From assembly GCF_000026545.1 (NCBI RefSeq), contig NC_011601.1: a stretch of 64,000 bases of DNA. The stretch is one strand, 5' to 3'. The notes under the pieces are model-generated. The model was not told the DNA's origin, ran no database searches, and saw nothing but the letters and a program-made list of their open reading frames with translations. The stretch comes from Escherichia coli O127:H6 str. E2348/69 (GTDB lineage Bacteria > Pseudomonadota > Gammaproteobacteria > Enterobacterales > Enterobacteriaceae). Both the position numbers and the translations under genes were made by a program. Positions 4,139-60,709 of this stretch are shown here, piece after piece. The stretch's first letter is position 1, and each line of letters begins with the position of its first letter.

Positions 4139-5872
4139 GTGGTGTATATGTCTAATAAAATCTTTACGCATTCCCTACCTATGCGCTATGCCGATTTTCC
4201 AACGCTGGTTGATGCTTTGGACTACGCCGCTCTGAGTAGCGCCGGAATGAATTTTTATGACAGACGTTGCCAACTTGAAGATCAACTGGAATATCAGACG
4301 TTAAAAGCGCGTGCCGAAGCTGGTGCGAAGCGGTTGTTATCGCTGAACCTGAAAAAAGGCGATCGCGTGGCGCTGATTGCCGAAACCAGTAGCGGGTTCG
4401 TAGAGGCTTTTTTTTCCTGCCAGTATGCCGGCTTAGTCGCCGTCCCGTTGGCGATTCCAATGGGCGTCGGTCAGCGGGATTCCTGGAGCGCCAAACTGCA
4501 GGGTTTACTGGCAAGTTGCCAGCCCGCAGCCATTATCACTGGTGATGAGTGGTTGCCACTGGTCAATGCCGCGACGCATAACAACAACCCCGAATTACAT
4601 GTTTTAAGCCACGCCTGGTTTAAGGCATTACCGGAAGCCGATGTTGCGCTCCAGCGTCCAGTTCCAAACGATATCGCCTACCTCCAGTACACCTCCGGCA
4701 GCACCCGTTTTCCCCGTGGCGTCATTATCACCCATCACGAAGTGATGGCTAATCTACGTGCTATAAGCCACGATGGCATTAAATTACGCCCTGGCGACCG
4801 CTGCGTCTCCTGGCTGCCTTTCTACCATGATATGGGACTGGTCGGCTTTCTCCTGACCCCCGTCGCCACGCAGCTTTCAGTAGATTATTTGCGCACTCAG
4901 GATTTTGCCATGCGTCCTCTGCAATGGCTTAAATTGATCAGTAAAAATCGCGGCACCGTTTCCGTTGCACCGCCGTTTGGCTATGAATTGTGCCAGCGCC
5001 GCGTGAATGAAAAAGATCTCGCTGAACTGGATCTTTCCTGCTGGCGCGTCGCTGGTATTGGAGCAGAACCGATCTCCGCAGAACAACTCCATCAATTCGC
5101 TGAATGTTTTCGTCAGGTTAACTTTGACGATAAAACTTTCATGCCGTGCTACGGACTGGCAGAAAATGCGCTGGCTGTCAGCTTCTCTGATGAAGCCTGC
5201 GGGGTTGTGGTTAACGAAGTGGATCGCGACATCCTCGAATACCAGGGTAAAGCCGTCGCGCCGGGTGCTGAAACACGCGCCGTATCGACTTTCGTCAACT
5301 GCGGTAAAGCGTTGCCGGAACATGGCATTGAAATCCGCAATGAAGCAGATATACCTGTCGCGGAACGTGTGGTAGGCCATATTTGCATCTCCGGCCCCAG
5401 CCTGATGAGCGGGTACTTTGGCGACCAGGTTTCGCAAGACGAGATTGCCGCGACGGGCTGGTTAGACACCGGCGACCTTGGTTATCTGCTGGACGGTTAT
5501 CTGTATGTCACCGGACGCATTAAAGATCTGATTATTATTCGTGGCCGTAATATCTGGCCGCAGGATATTGAATACATTGCGGAACAGGAACCGGAAATTC
5601 ATTCTGGCGATGCGATTGCTTTTGTTACCGCCCAGGAAAAAATCATTTTGCAGATCCAGTGTCGGATCAGCGACGAAGAACGTCGCGGGCAGCTTATCCA
5701 CGCGCTGGCAGCTCGGATCCAAAGCGAATTTGGCGTTACCGCGGATATCGATCTGTTGCCGCCCCACAGTATTCCCCGAACATCCTCCGGCAAGCCTGCC
5801 CGTGCGGAAGCGAAAAAACGTTATCAGAAGGCTTATGCTGCCAGTCTTCATGTGCAGGAATCCCTGGCATGA
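4139..5872 (+). CDS. AMP-dependent synthetase/ligase; fatty acyl-AMP ligase or acyl-ACP synthetase-like
   Basis: 577-aa ORF with adenylate-forming core motif YTSGSTRFPRGVIITH and downstream GYLYVTGRIKDLIIIRG motif typical of the ANL superfamily; stop overlaps next gene start (ATGA). Confidence 0.85.
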   Translation: MVYMSNKIFTHSLPMRYADFPTLVDALDYAALSSAGMNFYDRRCQLEDQLEYQTLKARAEAGAKRLLSLNLKKGDRVALIAETSSGFVEAFFSCQYAGLVAVPLAIPMGVGQRDSWSAKLQGLLASCQPAAIITGDEWLPLVNAATHNNNPELHVLSHAWFKALPEADVALQRPVPNDIAYLQYTSGSTRFPRGVIITHHEVMANLRAISHDGIKLRPGDRCVSWLPFYHDMGLVGFLLTPVATQLSVDYLRTQDFAMRPLQWLKLISKNRGTVSVAPPFGYELCQRRVNEKDLAELDLSCWRVAGIGAEPISAEQLHQFAECFRQVNFDDKTFMPCYGLAENALAVSFSDEACGVVVNEVDRDILEYQGKAVAPGAETRAVSTFVNCGKALPEHGIEIRNEADIPVAERVVGHICISGPSLMSGYFGDQVSQDEIAATGWLDTGDLGYLLDGYLYVTGRIKDLIIIRGRNIWPQDIEYIAEQEPEIHSGDAIAFVTAQEKIILQIQCRISDEERRGQLIHALAARIQSEFGVTADIDLLPPHSIPRTSSGKPARAEAKKRYQKAYAASLHVQESLA

Positions 5873-6783
5873 ATCAAACTGTCGCGGTGACGGGCGCTAC
5901 CGGGTTTATCGGTAAATATATTATTGATAACCTGCTCGCCCGCGGCTTTCACGTTCGCGCATTAACGCGTACTGCCCGCGCTCACGTCAATGATAATCTC
6001 ATCTGGGTGCGCGGTTCGCTGGAAGATACACATTCGCTTAGCGAACTGGTTGCCGGAGCCAGCGCGGTGGTCCATTGCGCCGGACAAGTGCGCGGACACA
6101 AAGAAGAGATTTTTACCCGCTGTAACGTTGACGGCAGCCTGCGCCTGATGCAAGCGGCAAAAGAGAGCGGCTTTTGCCAACGTTTTCTGTTTATCTCTTC
6201 GCTGGCGGCGCGCCATCCCGAACTCTCCTGGTACGCAAATTCCAAACACGTCGCCGAACAACGACTGATCGCAATGGCTGACGAAATTACGCTGGGCATT
6301 TTTCGCCCGACAGCCGTGTATGGTCCCGGCGATAAAGAGTTAAAACCGCTGTTTGACTGGATGCTGCGCGGCCTGCTGCCACGACTTGGTGCGCCAGATA
6401 CACAACTCTCTTTCCTGCACGTCACCGATTTTGCGCAAGCAGTGGGTCAGTGGTTAAACGCCGAAACTGTACAGACGCAAACCTATGAATTATGCGATGG
6501 CGTCGCTGGCGGCTATGACTGGCAACGCGTACGACAGCTTGCCGCCGAAGCCCGTTGTGGTTCTGTGCGGATGGTTGGCATTCCTCTGCCGCTACTCACC
6601 TGCCTTGCGGATATCAGTACTGCGTTGAGTCGCCTGGCAGGTAAAGAACCTATGCTGACCCGCTCGAAAATTCGTGAATTAACCCACGCCGACTGGTCGG
6701 CAAATAATAACCGTATTTCTGAAGATATTAATTGGTTTCCCGGGATTAGCCTGGAACACGCATTACGCAACGGGCTATTTTGA
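5869..6783 (+). CDS. NAD(P)-dependent epimerase/dehydratase-family oxidoreductase (extended SDR); candidate 3-keto reductase
   Basis: Start chosen at ATG 5869 (MNQTVAVTGATGFIGKYIIDNL...), giving an N-terminal Rossmann GxxGxxG motif; the longer ORF from 5659 would overlap the upstream gene by 200 bp and is rejected. Confidence 0.8.
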   Translation: MNQTVAVTGATGFIGKYIIDNLLARGFHVRALTRTARAHVNDNLIWVRGSLEDTHSLSELVAGASAVVHCAGQVRGHKEEIFTRCNVDGSLRLMQAAKESGFCQRFLFISSLAARHPELSWYANSKHVAEQRLIAMADEITLGIFRPTAVYGPGDKELKPLFDWMLRGLLPRLGAPDTQLSFLHVTDFAQAVGQWLNAETVQTQTYELCDGVAGGYDWQRVRQLAAEARCGSVRMVGIPLPLLTCLADISTALSRLAGKEPMLTRSKIRELTHADWSANNNRISEDINWFPGISLEHALRNGLF

Positions 6784-29010: not shown

Positions 29011-29034
29011 TGAACTGCACCCCAAATGTTGGAC
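29011..29034 (+). repeat. IS left terminal inverted repeat
   Basis: TGAACTGCACCCCAAATGTTGGAC, matching the reverse complement of the right end at about 20 of 24 positions. Confidence 0.75.
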
Positions 29035-29061
29035 ATAATCTGACATCTGAAGGTACAGTTT

Positions 29062-29555
29062 ATGAAACATTCATTTGAAGTAAAACTTGCCGCTGTAAAT
29101 CATTACCTGGCTGGTCATGCAGGCATCATTTCTACGGCAAAACTCTTTCAACTTTCTCACACCAGCCTCTCACACTGGATTAATCTTTTTCTTCTTCACG
29201 GTCCTCGGGCACTGGATTGCAGACACAAGCGTAGCTATTCTCCTGAAGATAAACTTTGCGTGGTTCTTTATGCTCTCGGGCATTCTGAGTCTCTACCCCG
29301 GGTAGCTGCCCGGTTTAACATTCCCAGCCACAACACGGTTAAAAACTGGATAAAAGGCTACCGCAAATCTGGTAATGAGGCCTTTATCAGGCGCAGGAAG
29401 GAGAAAAGCATGACCCGTTCTGATGATACCCATGAAAACGAGGCAAACATGACGCCGGAAGAGATGAAGAATGAGCTGCGTTATCTTCGCGCAGAAAATG
29501 CATATCTGAAAGCCATGCAGGAGCATCTCCTGGAAAAAAAGCGCCAGGAGCTGGA

Positions 29556-29583
<28 letters not shown>
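29062..29583 (+). CDS. insJ: IS150 transposase OrfA (InsJ, HTH DNA-binding)
   Basis: 173-aa ORF MKHSFEVKLAAVNHYLAGHAGIISTAKLF... recognised as IS150 InsJ; leucine-zipper-like C-terminal region. Confidence 0.9.
29535..29541 (+). other. Programmed -1 ribosomal frameshift slippery heptamer (A_AAA_AAG)
   Basis: A AAA AAG lies in the OrfA frame just before its stop, and the downstream OrfB is in the -1 frame; the classic IS3-family arrangement yielding an OrfAB fusion transposase. Confidence 0.7.
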
Positions 29584-31174
<1,591 letters not shown>

Positions 31175-43149: not shown

Positions 43150-43400
43150 TTTGCTTCCAGAAATGGTAAAAAAATAATCAAAGGCCGGGGATTATACGCT
43201 GTATCACGCGCGGAAATGAAGTGATGTTGATGAACGGTGGCGAAATACCCTGGTGAGGTTTTTCACTGCCCGACTTGGGCAAGCACATTTAAGGCTGGCG
43301 GTATCGTGGCAACTGCCGCTACTATTTATGCCGATCAGCAACGTTCAAATCATATTGCACGACGATCGGCTATCCGAGGACACCCACAGTAAGGCAAGGT

Positions 43401-44150
43401 ATGGAACAGGTTATTACAAAGCGCCGCTATTACGATATTGGTCTACAGATTGAAGAGCTGCTGTATTCAGGCGTATTTAAGGCCGGAGAACGCTTACCTT
43501 CAGAACGTGAACTGAGCGAGCGGTTTAATACCAGCCGAACTACCATTCGTGAAGCCATCATTATGCTGGAACTGAAAGGCGTATTGAATGTGAAGCAAGG
43601 GTCAGGGATTTTCTTTGTCGACTCCACCGATAAGCTCAACCAGAAATCATTAATGCCCTATTCAGAAATTGGCCCGTTTGAACTGTTACAGGCACGTCAG
43701 GTAATTGAGAGCAATATTACCGGTTTTGCTGCCAGCCAGATCAGCTTTAACGAGTTACAAGAGTTGAAGAAAATCATTGGATTACAGGAAAAAGCCATCG
43801 CTGCGGAAAGTGATAAATTTGAAGACCTGGATCACCGATTTCATAGCATTATTGCCGAAGCGACGCAAAATCGGGTACTCATCAAACAAGCCGCTGAATT
43901 ATGGCGGGCAGTGCGCACAGAAAACCCCCGCTGGAAGAAACTTAACTACAAGTACCTGCATGAAAAGCATTTGCGTCTGCAATGGCTGGAAGATCACCGG
44001 GCTATTTTCTTGGCTCTGCAACAGAAAGATTCAGAGCTCGCCAGGGAAGCGTCCTGGAGACATCTGGAAAACAGCAAAAATGAACTGATCAAAATCTTCA
44101 AACAAGACGCTTCCATCAGCGATTTTGATGACTTTTTCTTCGCTCGTTAA
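43401..44150 (+). CDS. GntR/FadR-family transcriptional regulator (accessory island)
   Basis: 249-aa ORF with N-terminal GntR-type winged HTH (GERLPSERELSERFNTSRTTIREAI) and FadR-like C-terminal domain; not part of the K-12 ygiQ–ftsP interval as I remember it. Confidence 0.8.
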   Translation: MEQVITKRRYYDIGLQIEELLYSGVFKAGERLPSERELSERFNTSRTTIREAIIMLELKGVLNVKQGSGIFFVDSTDKLNQKSLMPYSEIGPFELLQARQVIESNITGFAASQISFNELQELKKIIGLQEKAIAAESDKFEDLDHRFHSIIAEATQNRVLIKQAAELWRAVRTENPRWKKLNYKYLHEKHLRLQWLEDHRAIFLALQQKDSELAREASWRHLENSKNELIKIFKQDASISDFDDFFFAR

Positions 44151-44472
44151 CCTTCATTAGTCCAGAGCTGGCGGAAAAAATAACGCCGGCTCTGCCTTCC
44201 GCCCTCCACTGGTACACGCTCTCTTTTTAATTGGTCTAATAAATCAACTATCATCAGATATCTTAGATTAGCGGCAATTATCCTAAAAACTGACCTCTAA
44301 AAAACTTTCCTTTCATTTTATTCATATAACTCATTGATACAGATATAAATAACGCCTTGTTGTTCTGTTTCGTACTTTTACCTTTCTCTGCAAGCGTGAT
44401 GCATCCCTCTGTTTTTGGTCTAGTGAATTATGTAAATTGGTATACACACAAGCCACCAGGAGTAAGAGCATA

Positions 44473-45945
44473 ATGTCAGGGAACGAAAGTATCGATGCCG
44501 CCCACTATGATCAGGTAACCACCTGGCCTCGGGGCGGGTTACAGGCAGATATTGTCCATATTGGTTTTGGCGCTTTTCATCGCGGACACCAGGCTGTCTA
44601 CACGGATCTCACTAATCAACTTTCGGACACCCGCTGGGGGATCTTTGAGATTAACCTGTTTGGTGATGCTCAACTGATCGAAAACTTAAATGCGCAAAAT
44701 GGGCTGTTTTCGGTTGTGGAAACATCTGCATCGCAATCTACCTCACGCCTTGTGCGTTCGGTGGCTGGCGGTATTCATACCCCCAGAGATGGCATTGCCG
44801 CAGCAATCCATAAACTGGCTGAACCTCAGGTAAAAATCGTTTCATTAACTATCACCGAGAAAGGCTATTGTCTCGATCCGCAAACGCGATCGCTTGATCT
44901 CACCAATGGATTAATCAACCACGATCTACAAAATCCGGATGCGCCTCAGTCGGCTATTGGCGTGATCGTCTGTGCTTTGCAACAACGTAAAGCGGCAGGA
45001 CTCGCCGCTTTTAGTGTGCTCTCCTGCGACAACTTGCCAGACAATGGGCATCTGACGCGAAATGCCGTTCTCGGTTTTGCCCGACAACTGGACCAGCCCC
45101 TGGCTCAGTGGATCGAAGAAAATGTCTCATTTCCAGGCACGATGGTAGATCGCATTGTTCCGGCAATGACTGAATCGCAATTCGCCTTACTGGAAACGAA
45201 AACCGGTTATGCCGATCCCTGCGGGATCGTCTGCGAATCATTTCGTCAGTGGGTGATCGAAGATAATTTTGTGCGCGGACGACCGGAATGGGATAAAGCC
45301 GGCGCGATGTTTGTCAGCAATGTTCAGCCTTATGAAGAGATGAAGTTACGCATGTTAAATGGTAGCCATTCATTTCTGGCTTATAACGGCTCACTGGCTG
45401 GCTATGAATTTATCTGGCAATGCATGGAAGACGCTGATTTTCGTTCCATTACCCGCCAACTGATGATTAATGAACAAGCCCGAACACTTAATCCAGACTT
45501 AAATATCGACGCCCAGGAATACGCCGACCTGTTAATTGAACGCTTTAGCAACCGTAATGTTGCACACCGTACCGGGCAAATCGCTATGGACGGTTCGCAA
45601 AAGCTTCCCCAGCGAGCGCTGACGCCCTGGCTGAAATTGCATCAGCAAAAACAAAACAATGCTGTTCTGTCACTGCTCGTTGCTGGTTGGTTGCATTATG
45701 TCATTGATGCTGTTGAGAAAAGCCAGTCTGTCGCTGATCCAATGAATGACCAACTTCAGGCGCTAATAAAGGAACAACAAGACGCATGGCAACAGGCGCT
45801 CGCATTACTGCACCTTAGCGCCATATTTGGTGATTTAAGCAACCATCAGCCATTTATAAATGAAATAAAAATCGCCTTTGCAAATATAAAAAACAAAGGC
45901 ATCAAGGCCACCATCAGCCAATTATTATCGGATGAGCAGAAATGA
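44473..45945 (+). CDS. Long-chain mannitol dehydrogenase-family oxidoreductase (mannonate/fructuronate reductase-like)
   Basis: Start at ATG 44473 with GGAG ribosome-binding site; N-terminal HIGFGAFHRGHQA dinucleotide-binding motif typical of the mannitol dehydrogenase family. Confidence 0.8.
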   Translation: MSGNESIDAAHYDQVTTWPRGGLQADIVHIGFGAFHRGHQAVYTDLTNQLSDTRWGIFEINLFGDAQLIENLNAQNGLFSVVETSASQSTSRLVRSVAGGIHTPRDGIAAAIHKLAEPQVKIVSLTITEKGYCLDPQTRSLDLTNGLINHDLQNPDAPQSAIGVIVCALQQRKAAGLAAFSVLSCDNLPDNGHLTRNAVLGFARQLDQPLAQWIEENVSFPGTMVDRIVPAMTESQFALLETKTGYADPCGIVCESFRQWVIEDNFVRGRPEWDKAGAMFVSNVQPYEEMKLRMLNGSHSFLAYNGSLAGYEFIWQCMEDADFRSITRQLMINEQARTLNPDLNIDAQEYADLLIERFSNRNVAHRTGQIAMDGSQKLPQRALTPWLKLHQQKQNNAVLSLLVAGWLHYVIDAVEKSQSVADPMNDQLQALIKEQQDAWQQALALLHLSAIFGDLSNHQPFINEIKIAFANIKNKGIKATISQLLSDEQK

Positions 45946-46958
45946 AAACATTAATTTGTCAGCAGCCTGGCGTTATGGAATATGTGGAAAAGGATATTCC
46001 CACACCAGCAGATAATGAAGTGCTGTTAAAAATCAAAGCTGTGGGTATTTGTGGTACGGATATTCACGCTTTTGCCGGCAGACAGCCTTTTTTTAGCTAC
46101 CCACGTGTATTAGGTCATGAAATATGCGCCGAAGCGGTTTCGCTAGGCAGCCAGTGCCAAACAGCACAGCCAGGCCAGCGCTATTCCGTCATCCCATGCA
46201 TTCCGTGTGGCGAGTGCGCAGCCTGTCGGGAAGAGAAAACGAATTGCTGCGAACGTGTTTCGCTGTATGGCGTGCATCAGGATGGAGGTTTTAGTGAGTA
46301 CCTTGCGGTACGTAAAGACAACCTGGTGCCGCTCCCTGACGAGGTAAGCGACAGCGCCGGAGCATTGGTTGAATGTTTCGCCATTGGTGCACATGCCGTT
46401 CGTCGGGCTGAGATCAAGGCTGAACAAAACGTACTGGTGATTGGCGCCGGGCCAATAGGTCTGGCTACCGCAGCCATCGCCAGGGCTAAAGGGGCGCATG
46501 TTGTTGTTGCTGATATTGATTGTCAACGTCGCCAGCACGTTGTGGGTAATCTGGATATTAATGCCTTCGATCCCACACAGAAAGATTTTATTGCCGCGCT
46601 TCGTGAGGCTTTTGGAGGCGAACTGGCTTGCGTAGTACTGGATGCGACGGGAAATAAAGCTTCAATGAGTCAGGATGTAAATCTTATTCGTCATGGCGGC
46701 AAAATTGTTTTCATCGGTTTATACATTGGTGAACTTGTTATTGACGATCCGACCTTCCATAAAAAAGAGACAACGTTACTCAGCAGTCGCAATGCCACAC
46801 GGGAAGATTTTGCGTTGGTGATTGAACTGATGCGCAGCAATAAAATTCACGAAAATTTAATGAAAAACCAGGCGTTCGATTTCTTTAGTGTTGGCGAAGA
46901 TTACCAGCGTAACGTTGTAGAAAATAAAAATATGGTCAAGGGTGTGATCACTTTTTAA
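45942..46958 (+). CDS. Zinc-dependent medium-chain alcohol/polyol dehydrogenase (sugar-acid 5-dehydrogenase-like)
   Basis: 338-aa ORF with GHE catalytic zinc motif, a structural-zinc Cys cluster (CGECAACREEKTNCC) and Rossmann motif VIGAGPIGL. Confidence 0.8.
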   Translation: MKTLICQQPGVMEYVEKDIPTPADNEVLLKIKAVGICGTDIHAFAGRQPFFSYPRVLGHEICAEAVSLGSQCQTAQPGQRYSVIPCIPCGECAACREEKTNCCERVSLYGVHQDGGFSEYLAVRKDNLVPLPDEVSDSAGALVECFAIGAHAVRRAEIKAEQNVLVIGAGPIGLATAAIARAKGAHVVVADIDCQRRQHVVGNLDINAFDPTQKDFIAALREAFGGELACVVLDATGNKASMSQDVNLIRHGGKIVFIGLYIGELVIDDPTFHKKETTLLSSRNATREDFALVIELMRSNKIHENLMKNQAFDFFSVGEDYQRNVVENKNMVKGVITF

Positions 46959-46968
46959 GGGAACAAAT

Positions 46969-47979
46969 ATGACAACTGTTTATGTCAGTGAAGAAAATTT
47001 AAAATCACTGGTGCACCACAAATTACATACCGCCGGGCTGGATACCGACACCACACAACAGGTGACAGATGTTTTAGTACATGCCGATATTACCGGTGTG
47101 CATTCACATGGTGTTATGTGTGTCGAACATTATTGCACCCGCCTTGCTGCCGGAGGGTTAAATAAAGCCCCGCAGTTTAGCATTGAGCAAATTTCACCGT
47201 CAGTGGCCATTCTCGACTCTGACGACGGAATGGGGCATTCCGCATTAATTACCGCCACTGAGCACGCTATTAAACTGGCCCAGCAAGAGGGTCTCGGTTT
47301 TGTTAGCGTTAAAAACACGTCTCACTGTGGTGCGTTATCTTATTTTGCAGAGATGATCACCAACAAAGGGTTGGTTGCTATCGTAATGACGCAAACCGAT
47401 ACCTGTGTGGCTCCCCATGGCGGCGCCGAGCGCTTTTTGGGAACTAACCCCATCGCCTTTGGTTTCCCGGTGGAAAACAGCCATCCGATGATTGTTGATA
47501 TGGCGACCAGTGCCACGGCTTTCGGCAAAATACTTCATGCAAAGGAAACCGGAAAACATATTGGTGAAGGGCTGGCGATAGATAAAAACGGTTATGGCAC
47601 CACTGATCCGTATAAGATTGAAAACCTGCTACCTTTCGGCCAACACAAAGGTTCAGGCATTGCACTGGCTATTGATGCACTGACTGGCGTGCTGATGAAT
47701 GCGAATTTTGGCAACCATATTGTTCGCATGTATGGTGATTATGACAAGATGCGTAAGCTGGCAAGTTTGGTTATTGCCATCGATCCGAAAAAGCTCGGCA
47801 ATCCTGTTTTTGCAAAAACTATGGCGAAAATGGTCACGGAGCTGCATGCCGTTAAACCGGCTCCTGGTGTCGAAAAAGTGTTAGCGCCGAACGATCCGCA
47901 AATGCACTACAAAGAAAAATGCCAACAGGAAGGTATTCCGGTTCCGGCAGGAATATTCCATTATCTGGCAGAGAATTAA
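46969..47979 (+). CDS. Ldh2-family (malate/L-lactate dehydrogenase-type) oxidoreductase, YiaK-like
   Basis: 336-aa ORF; family assignment from overall resemblance to Ldh2/YiaK-type 2-keto-acid reductases (motifs HGVMCVEHY, SHCGALSYFAEM). Confidence 0.65.
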   Translation: MTTVYVSEENLKSLVHHKLHTAGLDTDTTQQVTDVLVHADITGVHSHGVMCVEHYCTRLAAGGLNKAPQFSIEQISPSVAILDSDDGMGHSALITATEHAIKLAQQEGLGFVSVKNTSHCGALSYFAEMITNKGLVAIVMTQTDTCVAPHGGAERFLGTNPIAFGFPVENSHPMIVDMATSATAFGKILHAKETGKHIGEGLAIDKNGYGTTDPYKIENLLPFGQHKGSGIALAIDALTGVLMNANFGNHIVRMYGDYDKMRKLASLVIAIDPKKLGNPVFAKTMAKMVTELHAVKPAPGVEKVLAPNDPQMHYKEKCQQEGIPVPAGIFHYLAEN

Positions 47980-48051
47980 TCACTATTTTTTATTATAACG
48001 ATAGAAAAGCGCTGTATTTATCGTTTCTGTTATATTAACCAGGAGCAGGAT

Positions 48052-49035
48052 ATGAAAGCACTTCGTCCTCTGACGGCATCGCTTATGCTGTTAACCAGTT
48101 GTTTATTAATATCTAATACCACACTGGCAAAAACAACATTAAAACTGAGTCATAATCAGGATAAAAGCCATGCTGTCCATAAAGCATTAAGCTATTTAGC
48201 GGATAAAACCAAAGAGTATTCTAATAGTGAATTAGTTATTCGCATTTACCCAAATGCGACATTAGGTAATGAGCGTGAATCACTGGAATTAATGAACTCC
48301 GGTGCATTACAGATGGTTAAGGTTAATGCCGCATCACTAGAATCATTTGCTCCGGATTACAGCCTTTTCAGTCTGCCGTTCTTATTCCGCGACCGTGATC
48401 ACTATTATCGTGTTCTGCAAAGTGATTTAGGTAAAAAAATACTTAATTCATCAGAAAGCAAAGGTTTTGTTGGTATTACGTACTATGACGGCGGTGCGAG
48501 AAGTTTTTATTCCAATAAACCGATTACAAAACCTGAAGATTTAGCGGGAATGAAAATCAGGGTTCAACAAAGCCCCAGCGCCATTGCAATGATGAAAGCA
48601 CTCGGTGGTGTCGCTACCCCGATGGCGCAAGGCGAACTCTACACCGCACTTCAGCAAGGAGTGGTTGATGGCGGAGAGAACAATACCGTTGTCTATGCCG
48701 ATATGCGTCACGCCGAAGTCGCAAAAGTCTATTCACGTGATGAACACACCATGGTGCCTGATGTGTTAATTATCAGCACCGACGTGTTGAATAAACTTGG
48801 TGATAAAGAGCGCACGGCATTATTAAAAGCAGCCGATGAGTCAATGATGCAGATGAAGGACGTCATTTGGCCTGCGGCTGAAAAAGAAGCCTACGACAAA
48901 ATGAAAGGGATGAACGCAACAGTTGTTGATGTTGATAAATCCGCTTTCAAAGAACGCGTCAAACCGTTATACGATGAATTCAAGGCGAAAGATGCACAAT
49001 CAGCCAAAAACCTTGAGCTAGTAGAAAGTATGTAA
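48052..49035 (+). CDS. TRAP transporter substrate-binding protein (DctP family)
   Basis: 327-aa ORF with signal peptide, followed by small and large TRAP permease genes. Confidence 0.8.
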   Translation: MKALRPLTASLMLLTSCLLISNTTLAKTTLKLSHNQDKSHAVHKALSYLADKTKEYSNSELVIRIYPNATLGNERESLELMNSGALQMVKVNAASLESFAPDYSLFSLPFLFRDRDHYYRVLQSDLGKKILNSSESKGFVGITYYDGGARSFYSNKPITKPEDLAGMKIRVQQSPSAIAMMKALGGVATPMAQGELYTALQQGVVDGGENNTVVYADMRHAEVAKVYSRDEHTMVPDVLIISTDVLNKLGDKERTALLKAADESMMQMKDVIWPAAEKEAYDKMKGMNATVVDVDKSAFKERVKPLYDEFKAKDAQSAKNLELVESM

Positions 49036-49076
49036 CCCTAATGGGCAGGTAATTCCTGCCTTTTCATGGAAGACTT

Positions 49077-49559
49077 ATGCGAACACTCACTCATATTCTT
49101 AATAAGATCCTTGCCGGATGTTGCTGCATTATTCTCGCCATTATGGTGTTCTGCGTAACCTGGCAAGTTATTGCACGTTTTATTTTTAACGCTCCCAGCA
49201 CTGTGCTTGATGAGTTCACCCAGATTTTATTTATGTGGATGATTTTGCTTGGCGGTGTATATACTGCGGGTTTAAAAAAACATCTGGCCATTGATTTGTT
49301 GGCTCAAAAACTTCCTGCTGCATCTGTTCTGACGCTTGACAGTTTTATCCAAATTATCATTACGGTCTTTGCGGTTATTTTCATGATCTATGGCGGGAAT
49401 ATTGTTGTTGAAAAAGCACAACATGTTGGACAAATCTCTCCAGTATTAAAATGGCCAATGGATAAAGTATATTGGGTTATGCCTGTCAGTGGGCTTATTC
49501 TGGTCTGGTATTCAGTAATGAATATTATTGACAACTATCGTAAACGGAATTTTCATTAA
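49077..49559 (+). CDS. TRAP transporter small permease (DctQ family)
   Basis: 160-aa, 4-TM-type hydrophobic ORF between the binding-protein and large-permease genes. Confidence 0.8.
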   Translation: MRTLTHILNKILAGCCCIILAIMVFCVTWQVIARFIFNAPSTVLDEFTQILFMWMILLGGVYTAGLKKHLAIDLLAQKLPAASVLTLDSFIQIIITVFAVIFMIYGGNIVVEKAQHVGQISPVLKWPMDKVYWVMPVSGLILVWYSVMNIIDNYRKRNFH

Positions 49560-49569
49560 CGAGGGAAAT

Positions 49570-50874
49570 ATGGAATTTGAATATATCTACCCCGTCTTAA
49601 TTTTATTTGGCAGTTTTGCCGTCATGCTGGCAATAGGTGTGCCAATTACTTTTGCGATTGGTCTTTCTTCGCTGTTATCTATTATTACTGCCTTGCCACC
49701 CGACGCTGCCATTTCTGTTATTTCACAAAAAATGACTGTAGGGCTGGATGGCTTTACGCTATTAGCCATTCCCTTCTTCGTGTTAGCCGGAAACATTATG
49801 AATACCGGTGGTATAGCCAGACGACTGGTTAACCTGGCGCAAGCATTAGTTGGGCGTCTTCCTGGCTCACTGGCTCATTGTAATATCCTCGCGAATACAC
49901 TGTTTGGTGCGATTTCAGGTTCAGCCGTTGCGTCAGCCGCAGCGGTAGGTGGGATTATGTCACCACTGCAAGAAAAAGAGGGATATGATCCGGCGTTTTC
50001 AGCAGCGGTTAATATTGCCTCTGCCCCCATTGGCCTGATGATCCCACCGAGCAATGTGTTGATTGTTTATTCCCTCGCCAGTGGCGGGACTTCTGTCGCT
50101 GCGTTGTTCTTAGCTGGATATCTGCCGGGCATCCTCACCGCTGTTGCCTTAATGTTTGTAGCTGCACTTTATGCACGACGTCACCATTACCCAGTGGCCG
50201 AACGCATCAATTACCGTCAGTTTTTACAGGTATTCCGCGAATCAATTCCTAGCCTGATGCTTATTTTTATCATTATTGGCGGTATTATCGCAGGGGTATT
50301 TACGCCCACAGAAGCATCAGCAATAGCGGTAATTTATAGTTTAGCCCTGGCGATGATTTACCGGGAACTCACTCTTAAGAAACTCAATGATATTCTGTTA
50401 GATTCGGTAGTAACCAGTTCAATTGTTCTGTTACTGGTAGGCTGTTCAATGGGAATGTCATGGGCCATGACGAATGCTGATGTTCCTGAGTTGATCAACG
50501 AACTGATTACCCGCGTTTCGGATAACAAATGGGTCATTCTGTTTATTATCAATATCATTCTGTTGATCGTCGGTACCTTTATGGATATCACGCCGGCGAT
50601 CCTGATATTTACACCTATTTTCCTGCCGATCGCCCAGCATCTGGGGATTGATCCGATTCACTTCGGCATCATTATGGTTTTCAACTTAACCATTGGCCTT
50701 TGCACACCACCTGTCGGCACCATTCTGTTTGTGGGGTGCAGCATTGGTAAGGTCAGTATCGACAGGGCAATAAAACCATTACTGCCGATGTTTCTGGCAT
50801 TGTTTGTAGTAATGGCAATTATTTGTTATTTCCCGCAGCTTAGTCTGATGTTGCCAGGATTATTTTCGACCTGA
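49570..50874 (+). CDS. TRAP transporter large permease (DctM family)
   Basis: Start placed at MEFEYIYPVLILFG... with GAGGG ribosome-binding site; about 434-aa polytopic membrane protein. Confidence 0.8.
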   Translation: MEFEYIYPVLILFGSFAVMLAIGVPITFAIGLSSLLSIITALPPDAAISVISQKMTVGLDGFTLLAIPFFVLAGNIMNTGGIARRLVNLAQALVGRLPGSLAHCNILANTLFGAISGSAVASAAAVGGIMSPLQEKEGYDPAFSAAVNIASAPIGLMIPPSNVLIVYSLASGGTSVAALFLAGYLPGILTAVALMFVAALYARRHHYPVAERINYRQFLQVFRESIPSLMLIFIIIGGIIAGVFTPTEASAIAVIYSLALAMIYRELTLKKLNDILLDSVVTSSIVLLLVGCSMGMSWAMTNADVPELINELITRVSDNKWVILFIINIILLIVGTFMDITPAILIFTPIFLPIAQHLGIDPIHFGIIMVFNLTIGLCTPPVGTILFVGCSIGKVSIDRAIKPLLPMFLALFVVMAIICYFPQLSLMLPGLFST

Positions 50875-50944
50875 TACACAATGAAGACTGCATACTGAGT
50901 AATTTTCAATGCCCCACCACTCTGTGGGGCATTGAATTGGTCCA

Positions 50945-55799: not shown

Positions 55800-57407
55800 T
55801 CAATGTGCCTTGATATACAACTCTTTGCTGTAGACATAATCCTGGGGATTATGCAGCGGAAAACCGCCAACGTAGGGTTTAAGCAGTTTGATTAACGGCT
55901 GATAGTAGATGGGAATCAGCGGTGCCTGCTGGTTGATGATCACTTCTGCCTGCTGATACAACGCATTACGCTTTGTCGCATCAGTGATCTGCGTGGCCTG
56001 GTTTAGTAAGGCGTCATACTGCGCATTTTTCCAGTGACCGACGTTTTCTTCACTATCGCTTTTGAGCGTGTTCAGAAAGCTGGAGGCATCATTGTACGTC
56101 GCATCCCACGACTGCCGAGACAGCATGAAATCACCGGCTCGTCGGGCATCAAGATAGGTTTTCCACTCCATTGCGCGCAGCGTCACCTGTGCACCCAGCC
56201 ATTTTTTCCATTCGGAAGACAACGCTATCGCGGTCTTTTCATGCAGATCGTACTTGTTGTAGAACAGCTCAAAGCGTAGCGGATGAGAGGCGTCGTATCC
56301 CGTCTGTTTGAGCAAGACTTTTGCCATCGCGACGCGCTCACTCATTGGCTTTTGCAGTTCATCGAACGTCGTCGCGCTAAAGCCTTTTACCTCTGGCGGC
56401 GTCAGCGTGGTTGCGGGCGTTCTCAACCCCAGTACCTTTTGCGCAATAAGCTGTCGATCAACCGTAAGATATAGCGCCCGACGCACCCGCACATCGTTAA
56501 ATGGCGGTTTCTCAAGGTTAAAGTTGTAATATTCGCTGTTCAGACGCGGGATAATTCGTAGCTCGCCAGGCAGTGATTTTTCAATGGCGGGAATTTGCTG
56601 CGCCGGAACCCAGGTGAGATCGACCTCTCCCGCGCGATAGCGGTTATAGCCGGTGACCGAATTATCCAGCGCCAGATACTCAACCTGTTGCAATACTGTA
56701 TGTTGCGCATCGCGGTACTTTGGATTTTTGCGTGCAGTAATCTTTTCGTTAACTACCCATTTATCAAGCACAAAGGCACCGTTGTAAACCATGTTCTCTG
56801 GCTTACTCCAGCTATCGCCATGTTTAGCGATGACATGATGAGGAACCGGGAACAGCGTCGGCCAGGCGAGCATCGTCGTGAACCAAGGAACTGGCTGCTC
56901 AAGCGTAACTTCAAGAGTACGATCATCCGTCGCTTTGACACCCAGCGATGTAACATCTGCTTTACCCGCAACAATAGCCGCGGCATTGTTAATGTGCGCC
57001 TGTGCCAGATAGCCAGCAAAAGGGCTTGCCGTTTTCGGGTCAACCGCGCGCTGCCAGCCGAGGACAAAATCCTCTGCCGTCAGAGGCTGACCGTCTGACC
57101 ACTGCAAACCGCTACGCAGATGGAAAATATAGCGCTTGCCGCCGTCAAGTATCTCCCAGCGTTCAGCCTGAGCGGGCTGCACCTGGCCTTCACCGTCCAT
57201 CCATACCAGACCTTCAAACAGATCCAGCACAATCTGCGCGGCAGTATTCTCCTCTACCTTTTGCGGGTCGAGCGTGCCTGGGTCGCTATGATTGTTGTAA
57301 CGAAAGACTTGTTGCGGGGCGAGCGGTGTGTTGGCGGGAACGTCAGCAGCGTAGAGAGGAGCCGCACTTACCAGGCTGACCAGCCATAATAAATTTCGCG
57401 TATACAT
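55800..57407 (-). CDS. ygiS: Periplasmic solute-binding protein YgiS (oligopeptide/bile-acid-binding family)
   Basis: Start placed at MYTRNLLWLVSLVSAAPLYA (signal peptide), giving 535 aa. Confidence 0.9.
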   Translation of the reverse strand: MYTRNLLWLVSLVSAAPLYAADVPANTPLAPQQVFRYNNHSDPGTLDPQKVEENTAAQIVLDLFEGLVWMDGEGQVQPAQAERWEILDGGKRYIFHLRSGLQWSDGQPLTAEDFVLGWQRAVDPKTASPFAGYLAQAHINNAAAIVAGKADVTSLGVKATDDRTLEVTLEQPVPWFTTMLAWPTLFPVPHHVIAKHGDSWSKPENMVYNGAFVLDKWVVNEKITARKNPKYRDAQHTVLQQVEYLALDNSVTGYNRYRAGEVDLTWVPAQQIPAIEKSLPGELRIIPRLNSEYYNFNLEKPPFNDVRVRRALYLTVDRQLIAQKVLGLRTPATTLTPPEVKGFSATTFDELQKPMSERVAMAKVLLKQTGYDASHPLRFELFYNKYDLHEKTAIALSSEWKKWLGAQVTLRAMEWKTYLDARRAGDFMLSRQSWDATYNDASSFLNTLKSDSEENVGHWKNAQYDALLNQATQITDATKRNALYQQAEVIINQQAPLIPIYYQPLIKLLKPYVGGFPLHNPQDYVYSKELYIKAH

Positions 57408-57515
57408 GGTATTCCTTACCGGAGAAATTATAAGCCCGACAACAATACGCCTGTGGCATTGTTTGCTCAAACTTATCGCGAGTGATTTGGCTCACACTCC
57501 GGTAAAGATTCCCCA

Positions 57516-57998
57516 TCACGCCAACGGCACATAAATATCCGTTTCCAGTCGCCGCTCTGTCATCCCTTCGGCAAGATTGGTGTAGTGAAACAGGATCGGG
57601 GCTTTGCGCATTTTTTCGCCGCTTGCAGGTAGCCAGTGGCGAATGATGCCCCATATCGTGTGTGAAATATCGTCCAGCTCGCCAACATGGCGGGCAACAG
57701 CATAACGCCCACCGGTAAGTTCGCCATTACTCACGCCATAACGATTATCGGGAACAGGTTCGCTAACGCTGCCGCAGATATCAAAGCGAAACGCTTCCGG
57801 TGCGGTGGTGGCTGGGTCGTCCCAGGCGACGCCAAAAGTCTGGCTTTGGTTAACAGGAGAAAGCCCCGTCTCTTTACGCCACATGATAAATTTCGCCACG
57901 CTGTAGTTGAGCAACTCAGGGCTACAGCGGTGCGGCAACATCGCCACAGGGATTGATGGGAAATCGATAATATTTACATCCAGTGTCAGGTTTGTCAT
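57516..57998 (-). CDS. ygiV: GyrI-like domain transcriptional regulator YgiV
   Basis: 160-aa ORF recognised as YgiV; lies directly after ygiS with no intervening mqsRA. Confidence 0.85.
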   Translation of the reverse strand: MTNLTLDVNIIDFPSIPVAMLPHRCSPELLNYSVAKFIMWRKETGLSPVNQSQTFGVAWDDPATTAPEAFRFDICGSVSEPVPDNRYGVSNGELTGGRYAVARHVGELDDISHTIWGIIRHWLPASGEKMRKAPILFHYTNLAEGMTERRLETDIYVPLA

Positions 57999-60600: not shown

Positions 60601-60709
60601 GGGTAAGATTTTTGCTAAATTCGCAAAAGACTTTGCACATTTTGCTAATTTCACCGTACCGCTCTGTGACGTACTATAGTCGGCAAACGTCTCACCTTGA
60701 GGTTAAAAA

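Follow-up and report, generated by a model that had tools for sequence, protein, structure and literature searches.

In Escherichia coli K-12 MG1655, the type II toxin-antitoxin (TA) genes mqsA (b3021) and mqsR (b3022) lie between ygiS (b3020) and ygiV (b3023), while in the phylogroup B2 strain EPEC O127:H6 E2348/69, ygiS and ygiV are separated by only 108 bp. This raises the question of whether the module was never acquired by this strain or was acquired and then precisely lost. The K-12 gene order given in the initial annotation of the 64-kb stretch of E2348/69 DNA analyzed here (64,000 nucleotides, referred to below as the window) is correct. MG1655 and the window share the order parC-ygiS-ygiV-ygiW-qseBC, with the mqsRA site between ygiS and ygiV, as well as the ygiS leader and its hairpin. 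The window differs from MG1655 in having TTCCC instead of a 927-bp cassette and in having no ygiZ downstream of qseC. The features of the locus in the window are the following.

55800 to 57407, minus strand: ygiS, intact, 535 amino acids (translation; Pfam SBP_bac_5, E = 4e-82; RefSeq annotation of E2348/69, identical in sequence)
57408 to 57515, 108 bp: ygiV-ygiS spacer, the unoccupied and very probably ancestral mqsRA site (sequence, outgroup, and population data)
57412 to 57508, minus strand: long predicted hairpin in the ygiS leader, with arms at 57497 to 57508 and 57413 to 57424
57509 to 57513, 5 bp: TTCCC (GGGAA in gene orientation), swapped for the 927-bp cassette in K-12-type genomes
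57516 to 57998, minus strand: ygiV, intact, 160 amino acids (translation; Pfam GyrI-like, E = 2e-36; RefSeq annotation)

The product of ygiS is a periplasmic solute-binding protein with the N terminus MYTRNLLWLVSLVSAAPLYA. Read as complement, positions 57405 to 57407 are its start codon and positions 57516 to 57518 the stop codon of ygiV; the coordinates of both genes agree with those that RefSeq gives for the same sequence in E2348/69. The gap of 108 bp without an ORF, as originally described, is thus exact. No ORF lies wholly inside 57408 to 57515, and the two mechanical ORFs that overlap it, one on the plus strand (57406 to 57534, 42 amino acids, no Pfam match) and one out of frame on the minus strand (57343 to 57654), both extend beyond the gap.

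We searched the window for the missing genes. No match was found in the 64 kb by tblastn with the K-12 MqsR and MqsA proteins or by blastn with the whole cassette. When all six-frame ORFs of the window were compared with a profile HMM derived from 106 homologues of MqsA, none scored below E = 0.6, and a phmmer search of the same ORFs with MqsR returned nothing. The K-12 proteins themselves match PF15723 (MqsR, E = 5.5e-35) and the zinc-ribbon and HTH family PF15731 (MqsA, E = 7e-56), the hallmark of the system being a PF15723 ORF with an adjacent PF15731 ORF downstream; the window contains neither. These searches bear out the initial remark that mqsRA was not seen elsewhere in the window.

The proposed alignment against K-12 was carried out with a K-12-type locus (L001) and reduced the difference to an indel of 927 bp in the K-12 type versus the 5 bp TTCCC in the window. 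Homology on the left ends at window position 57508 (...CTCCGGTAAAGA) and resumes on the right at position 57514 (CATCACGCC...). The breakpoints are sharp (57508/57514 in the window, 2109/3037 in L001), and the window flanks are contiguous and collinear with those of the occupied allele. In the order of transcription, the 927-bp cassette comprises a 204-bp upstream region holding the mqsRA promoter, mqsR, mqsA, and a terminator-like structure, namely, a GC-rich hairpin followed by a T-run, located 31 bp beyond the mqsA stop codon and still inside the cassette. The insertion point follows the stop codon of ygiV at a distance of two bases. Neither a target-site duplication nor terminal repeats nor flanking direct repeats were seen at the cassette ends. 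The GC content of the cassette is 41%, compared to 52 to 53% for ygiS and ygiV, indicating that its composition is foreign to the locus.

The distribution of the two alleles was determined in 5,426 complete E. coli genomes, mqsRA and the empty junction being scored separately, the latter with a 300-bp probe across it. The states of the locus were as follows.

mqsRA present: 2,298 genomes (42%), every copy chromosomal, identity at least 99%
Uninterrupted junction: 3,110 genomes (57%), detected with the 300-bp probe
Empty with an intact ygiS (the state of the window): about 1,750 genomes (32%), calculated as 3,110 minus 1,357
Empty, ygiS replaced by 242 bp: 1,357 genomes (25%), a subset of the 3,110
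Other rearrangements: about 18 genomes (0.3%), for example, an IS30-associated deletion

Carriers, which include K-12, BL21, and H10407, and genomes with an uninterrupted junction, which include B2 strains, O157:H7, O91, and O111, together account for 5,408 of the 5,426 (2,298 + 3,110). The junction probe gave 2,297 excess places (7,721 minus 5,424), a number matching that of the carriers and thus indicating that mqsRA is essentially always found at one and the same site. The cassette is also uniform, its copies being at least 99% identical (n = 2,298) versus flanks that vary between 95 and 99%. At the empty junction, B2 and E strains (CFT073, ST131, APEC O1, NRG857c, and O157:H7) have the same ygiS/ygiV junction as the window, with 95 to 100% identity and differences only at the level of SNPs.

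The 242-bp sequence that replaces ygiS occurs in B1-type genomes, which also have no mqsRA. It is single-copy and unannotated, and all that is left of ygiS beside it is 36 bp at the 3' end and 22 bp at the 5' end; in E. coli O91 RM7190 the replacement occupies positions 5759 to 6000 of the locus (L002), corresponding to 55836 to 57385 in the window, and it is found in O111:H8 as well. We considered whether it could be a fragment of a group II intron, since its reverse strand begins with GTGCG, and rejected this candidate, as a search of Rfam gave no match at E ≤ 1 for this single-copy, unannotated sequence. In E. coli MB20 (L003, 3764 to 6101), an IS30 element lies between a ygiS missing its 5' part and a ygiV missing its 3' part, which shows that other rearrangements also arise at the locus.

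The polarity of the difference was addressed with outgroups. A scan with YgiV as the query and one genome per species returned five non-E. coli Escherichia species, the set comprising neither E. fergusonii nor the E. coli species representative, and MqsR and MqsA were absent from the site in all five. Three of them, E. albertii, E. whittamii, and an Escherichia sp. (L006), have ygiV directly adjoining ygiS, with a spacer of roughly 110 bp that aligns position by position with that of the window. The outgroup spacers keep the succession TGA-TG-GGGAA-TCTTTACCGGAG, the 5 bp being present as GGGAA or GGGA. In two outgroup Escherichia (L005 and L007), ygiS is internally deleted. Since the outgroups share the contiguous spacer including the 5 bp, the empty junction is the ancestral one, and since the K-12 junctions do not contain TTCCC, a simple deletion cannot restore the sequence of the window. 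Of the two histories between which the initial annotation did not choose, the outgroup junctions, the foreign GC content, and the absence of TTCCC from the K-12 junctions thus favor the first, that the module was never acquired. We are highly confident that the window displays the ancestral, never-occupied ygiV-ygiS spacer and that the cassette was gained in the lineage toward K-12-like strains.

The events that would best account for these alleles start with the insertion of a foreign 927-bp cassette downstream of the ygiV stop codon, in the lineage leading to K-12-like strains, with replacement of 5 bp. This cassette would have brought an autoregulated mqsRA promoter, mqsR, mqsA, and an intrinsic terminator, and it would then have been passed on within E. 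coli vertically and probably also through homologous recombination involving its flanks. The B2 lineage of E2348/69 would have stayed without the cassette, the original 108-bp spacer with the ygiS leader persisting there. We infer both the single acquisition and this route of spread.

The background in which the empty site lies in E2348/69 is marked by an island located between ygiQ and ftsP (window positions 43400 to 50875) and encoding an FCD-family regulator, a mannitol dehydrogenase family protein, a Zn-dependent alcohol dehydrogenase, an Ldh-family oxidoreductase, and a TRAP transporter. Probed with positions 44000 to 46999, this B2-associated island was detected in about 1,200 of the 5,426 genomes, only about 80 of which carry mqsRA.

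Three other histories could in principle lead to the same empty site. The ancestors of E2348/69 might have carried mqsRA and lost it by a spontaneous, precise deletion of the cassette. TA cassettes can indeed be lost, and deletions are seen at this locus, but those are of other kinds, either IS30 mediated, affecting the 5' part of ygiS and the 3' part of ygiV, or consisting of the ygiS replacement found in 1,357 genomes. A precise deletion would have had to yield the TTCCC kept in the window, which the occupied allele could not recreate, being without it at its junctions. In addition, E. albertii and E. whittamii have the same junction, the window contains no remnant of the cassette, and direct repeats able to drive its excision were not seen at its ends, so that we give this history next to no credence. 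A locus that was never occupied is also to be preferred to one that was occupied and then reverted through homologous recombination with an imported empty allele, a scenario that we regard as very unlikely. Cassette copies from all carriers, including the roughly 80 genomes with the B2-type island, share at least 99% identity, which indicates that recombination across the locus does occur and that the cassette moves between backgrounds, making a replacement back to the empty state formally possible. However, the flanks in the window are 99 to 100% identical to those of other B2 strains and 97.5% identical to those of K-12 or B1 strains, while the flanks of K-12 share 99.3 to 100% identity with those of an empty B1 genome (O91) and 97.5% with those of the window. 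Flank divergence hence tracks phylogroup and not occupancy, and the B2 type of the window flanks argues for a site that was never occupied over one that was replaced. Nearly all of the island-bearing, B2-like genomes are empty, nothing demands an additional step of gain plus loss, and replacement by an empty allele is much less parsimonious than a never-occupied site.

Finally, mqsRA could have been relocated elsewhere in the genome of E2348/69, or a divergent paralogue could be present. MqsRA-family pairs do exist on plasmids of other Enterobacterales, but we found no support for either variant in E2348/69, where the window has no match even at the profile level. As a probe for relocation, 3 kb of strain-specific sequence was joined to the mqsRA coding region. 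In "near" mode, this chimeric probe gave exactly one place in each of three E2348/69 chromosome assemblies, all of which are 100% identical to a 24-kb stretch of the window, the next best genomes reaching 99.0%; in "distant" mode it was uninformative, dehydrogenase paralogues giving 5 places in every genome. Sensitive blastn over the 5,426 genomes retrieved only copies that are at least 99% identical, none of them divergent and none plasmid borne, and the complete-genome collection holds no record of mqsRA on an E. coli plasmid. Judged at the DNA level, relocation within E2348/69 is excluded, and the probability that we leave to this explanation as a whole is minimal. The never-occupied spacer is thus the reading that we retain.

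We then looked for the origin of the cassette. In PLSDB, it was found in two E. coli records only, one of which is a 4.9-Mb replicon. More distant plasmid relatives occur in Rahnella, Rouxiella, Pectobacterium, and Yersinia, with 64 to 73% DNA identity across a portion of the coding region, and the closest non-E. coli MqsA proteins, from Brenneria and Pluralibacter, are about 70% identical. According to their annotations, the pairs on these plasmids belong to the same two-gene family as mqsRA, with the toxin gene first, but with 64 to 73% identity at the DNA level and about 64 to 70% at the level of the MqsA protein they differ too much from E. coli mqsRA to be its direct donor. No donor was found among the PLSDB plasmids or the MqsA homologues. 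MqsA variants with 78 to 92% identity were considered as alleles from sister species and rejected, since they come from the same E. coli ygiV-mqsRA-ygiS locus in assemblies with fragmented genes, the fragmentation being probably due to sequencing errors.

The spacer itself is predicted to form a long hairpin in the ygiS leader. It is closed by a 12-bp inverted repeat in which TCTTTACCGGAG pairs with CTCCGGTAAGGA (minus strand), its predicted RNA fold has an energy of -43.7 kcal/mol (z = -3.6 versus shuffled sequences), and the Shine-Dalgarno sequence of ygiS, AAGGA, lies within its 3' arm. K-12 retains both arms, and its cassette lies immediately 5' of the hairpin base. The hairpin sequence is conserved across Escherichia, and no compensatory changes indicative of covariation were seen. 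Rfam gave no match for the spacer or the hairpin, and a scan of the spacer for promoters and terminators found nothing convincing, the one weak terminator-like site having no proper T-run. The hairpin may possibly regulate ygiS. Cleavage of ygiS mRNA by MqsR has been reported. One could imagine a three-allele polymorphism in which the gain of MqsR and the loss of ygiS would be alternative routes to less YgiS-dependent bile-salt uptake, ancestral ygiS being controlled instead by the conserved hairpin sequestering its ribosome-binding site; we mention this as a tentative idea that is unlikely to be correct.

The occupied allele fits the description of horizontally acquired TA cassettes given in PMC5120126, which, with reference to Ramisetty and Santhosh 2016, describes the chromosomal TA modules of E. 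coli as horizontally transferred cassettes integrated beside core genes. Like these, it is a compact module of promoter and operator plus the TA ORFs, has an atypical GC content, and is located between core genes, and the window represents the unoccupied counterpart of such an intergenic cassette. Unlike the "minimal" cassettes of Table 1 in that source, the mqsRA cassette brings its own terminator. The absence of mqsRA from E2348/69 is a common polymorphism that has already been documented and entails no new biology. Norton and Mulvey showed that the type II TA repertoire is reduced in common among B2 strains, E2348/69 being one of those they named, and that CFT073 has only 7 of the 16 loci of MG1655 (PMC3464220); the B2 strain NRG857c was reported to lack MqsRA homologues (PMC7232551), and a pan-genome study counts mqsR, mqsA, and ygiS among the accessory genes, with variable frequencies (PMC11390585).

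The initial annotation had also held that the absence of the module matters for interpreting persistence and biofilm phenotypes. What stands of this claim is that results obtained with MqsR/MqsA in K-12, namely, on biofilm, persistence, control of GhoST, and deoxycholate tolerance via ygiS, are not transferable to E2348/69, nor more generally to complete E. coli genomes without the module, which make up 57%. The claim is nevertheless weakened by an independent study in which Fraikin et al. failed to reproduce the reported effects of mqsRA on the stress response, biofilm formation, and deoxycholate tolerance (PMC6918082; reviewed in PMC7167474); the physiological importance of mqsRA is disputed. 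Since the empty state is both ancestral and in the majority, mqsRA is an accessory, horizontally acquired module and not a core regulator of E. coli physiology, which agrees with the skeptical reassessment in PMC6918082.

Outside the mqsRA site, two further differences from other strains were observed in the window. Between qseC and the region upstream of mdaB there are only 5 bp (60601 to 60605) and no ygiZ; the same interval measures 592 bp and contains ygiZ in K-12 and O91, and in the B2 strain FDAARGOS_536 it extends over 1,722 bp containing ygiZ, a hypothetical gene, and an orphan Hcp (type VI secretion system) gene. In addition, a 1.43-kb IS3-family element (29011 to 30439), with orfA at 29062 to 29583 and orfB at 29685 to 30407, interrupts gpr, encoding L-glyceraldehyde 3-phosphate reductase; at this position, FDAARGOS_536 does not carry the element.
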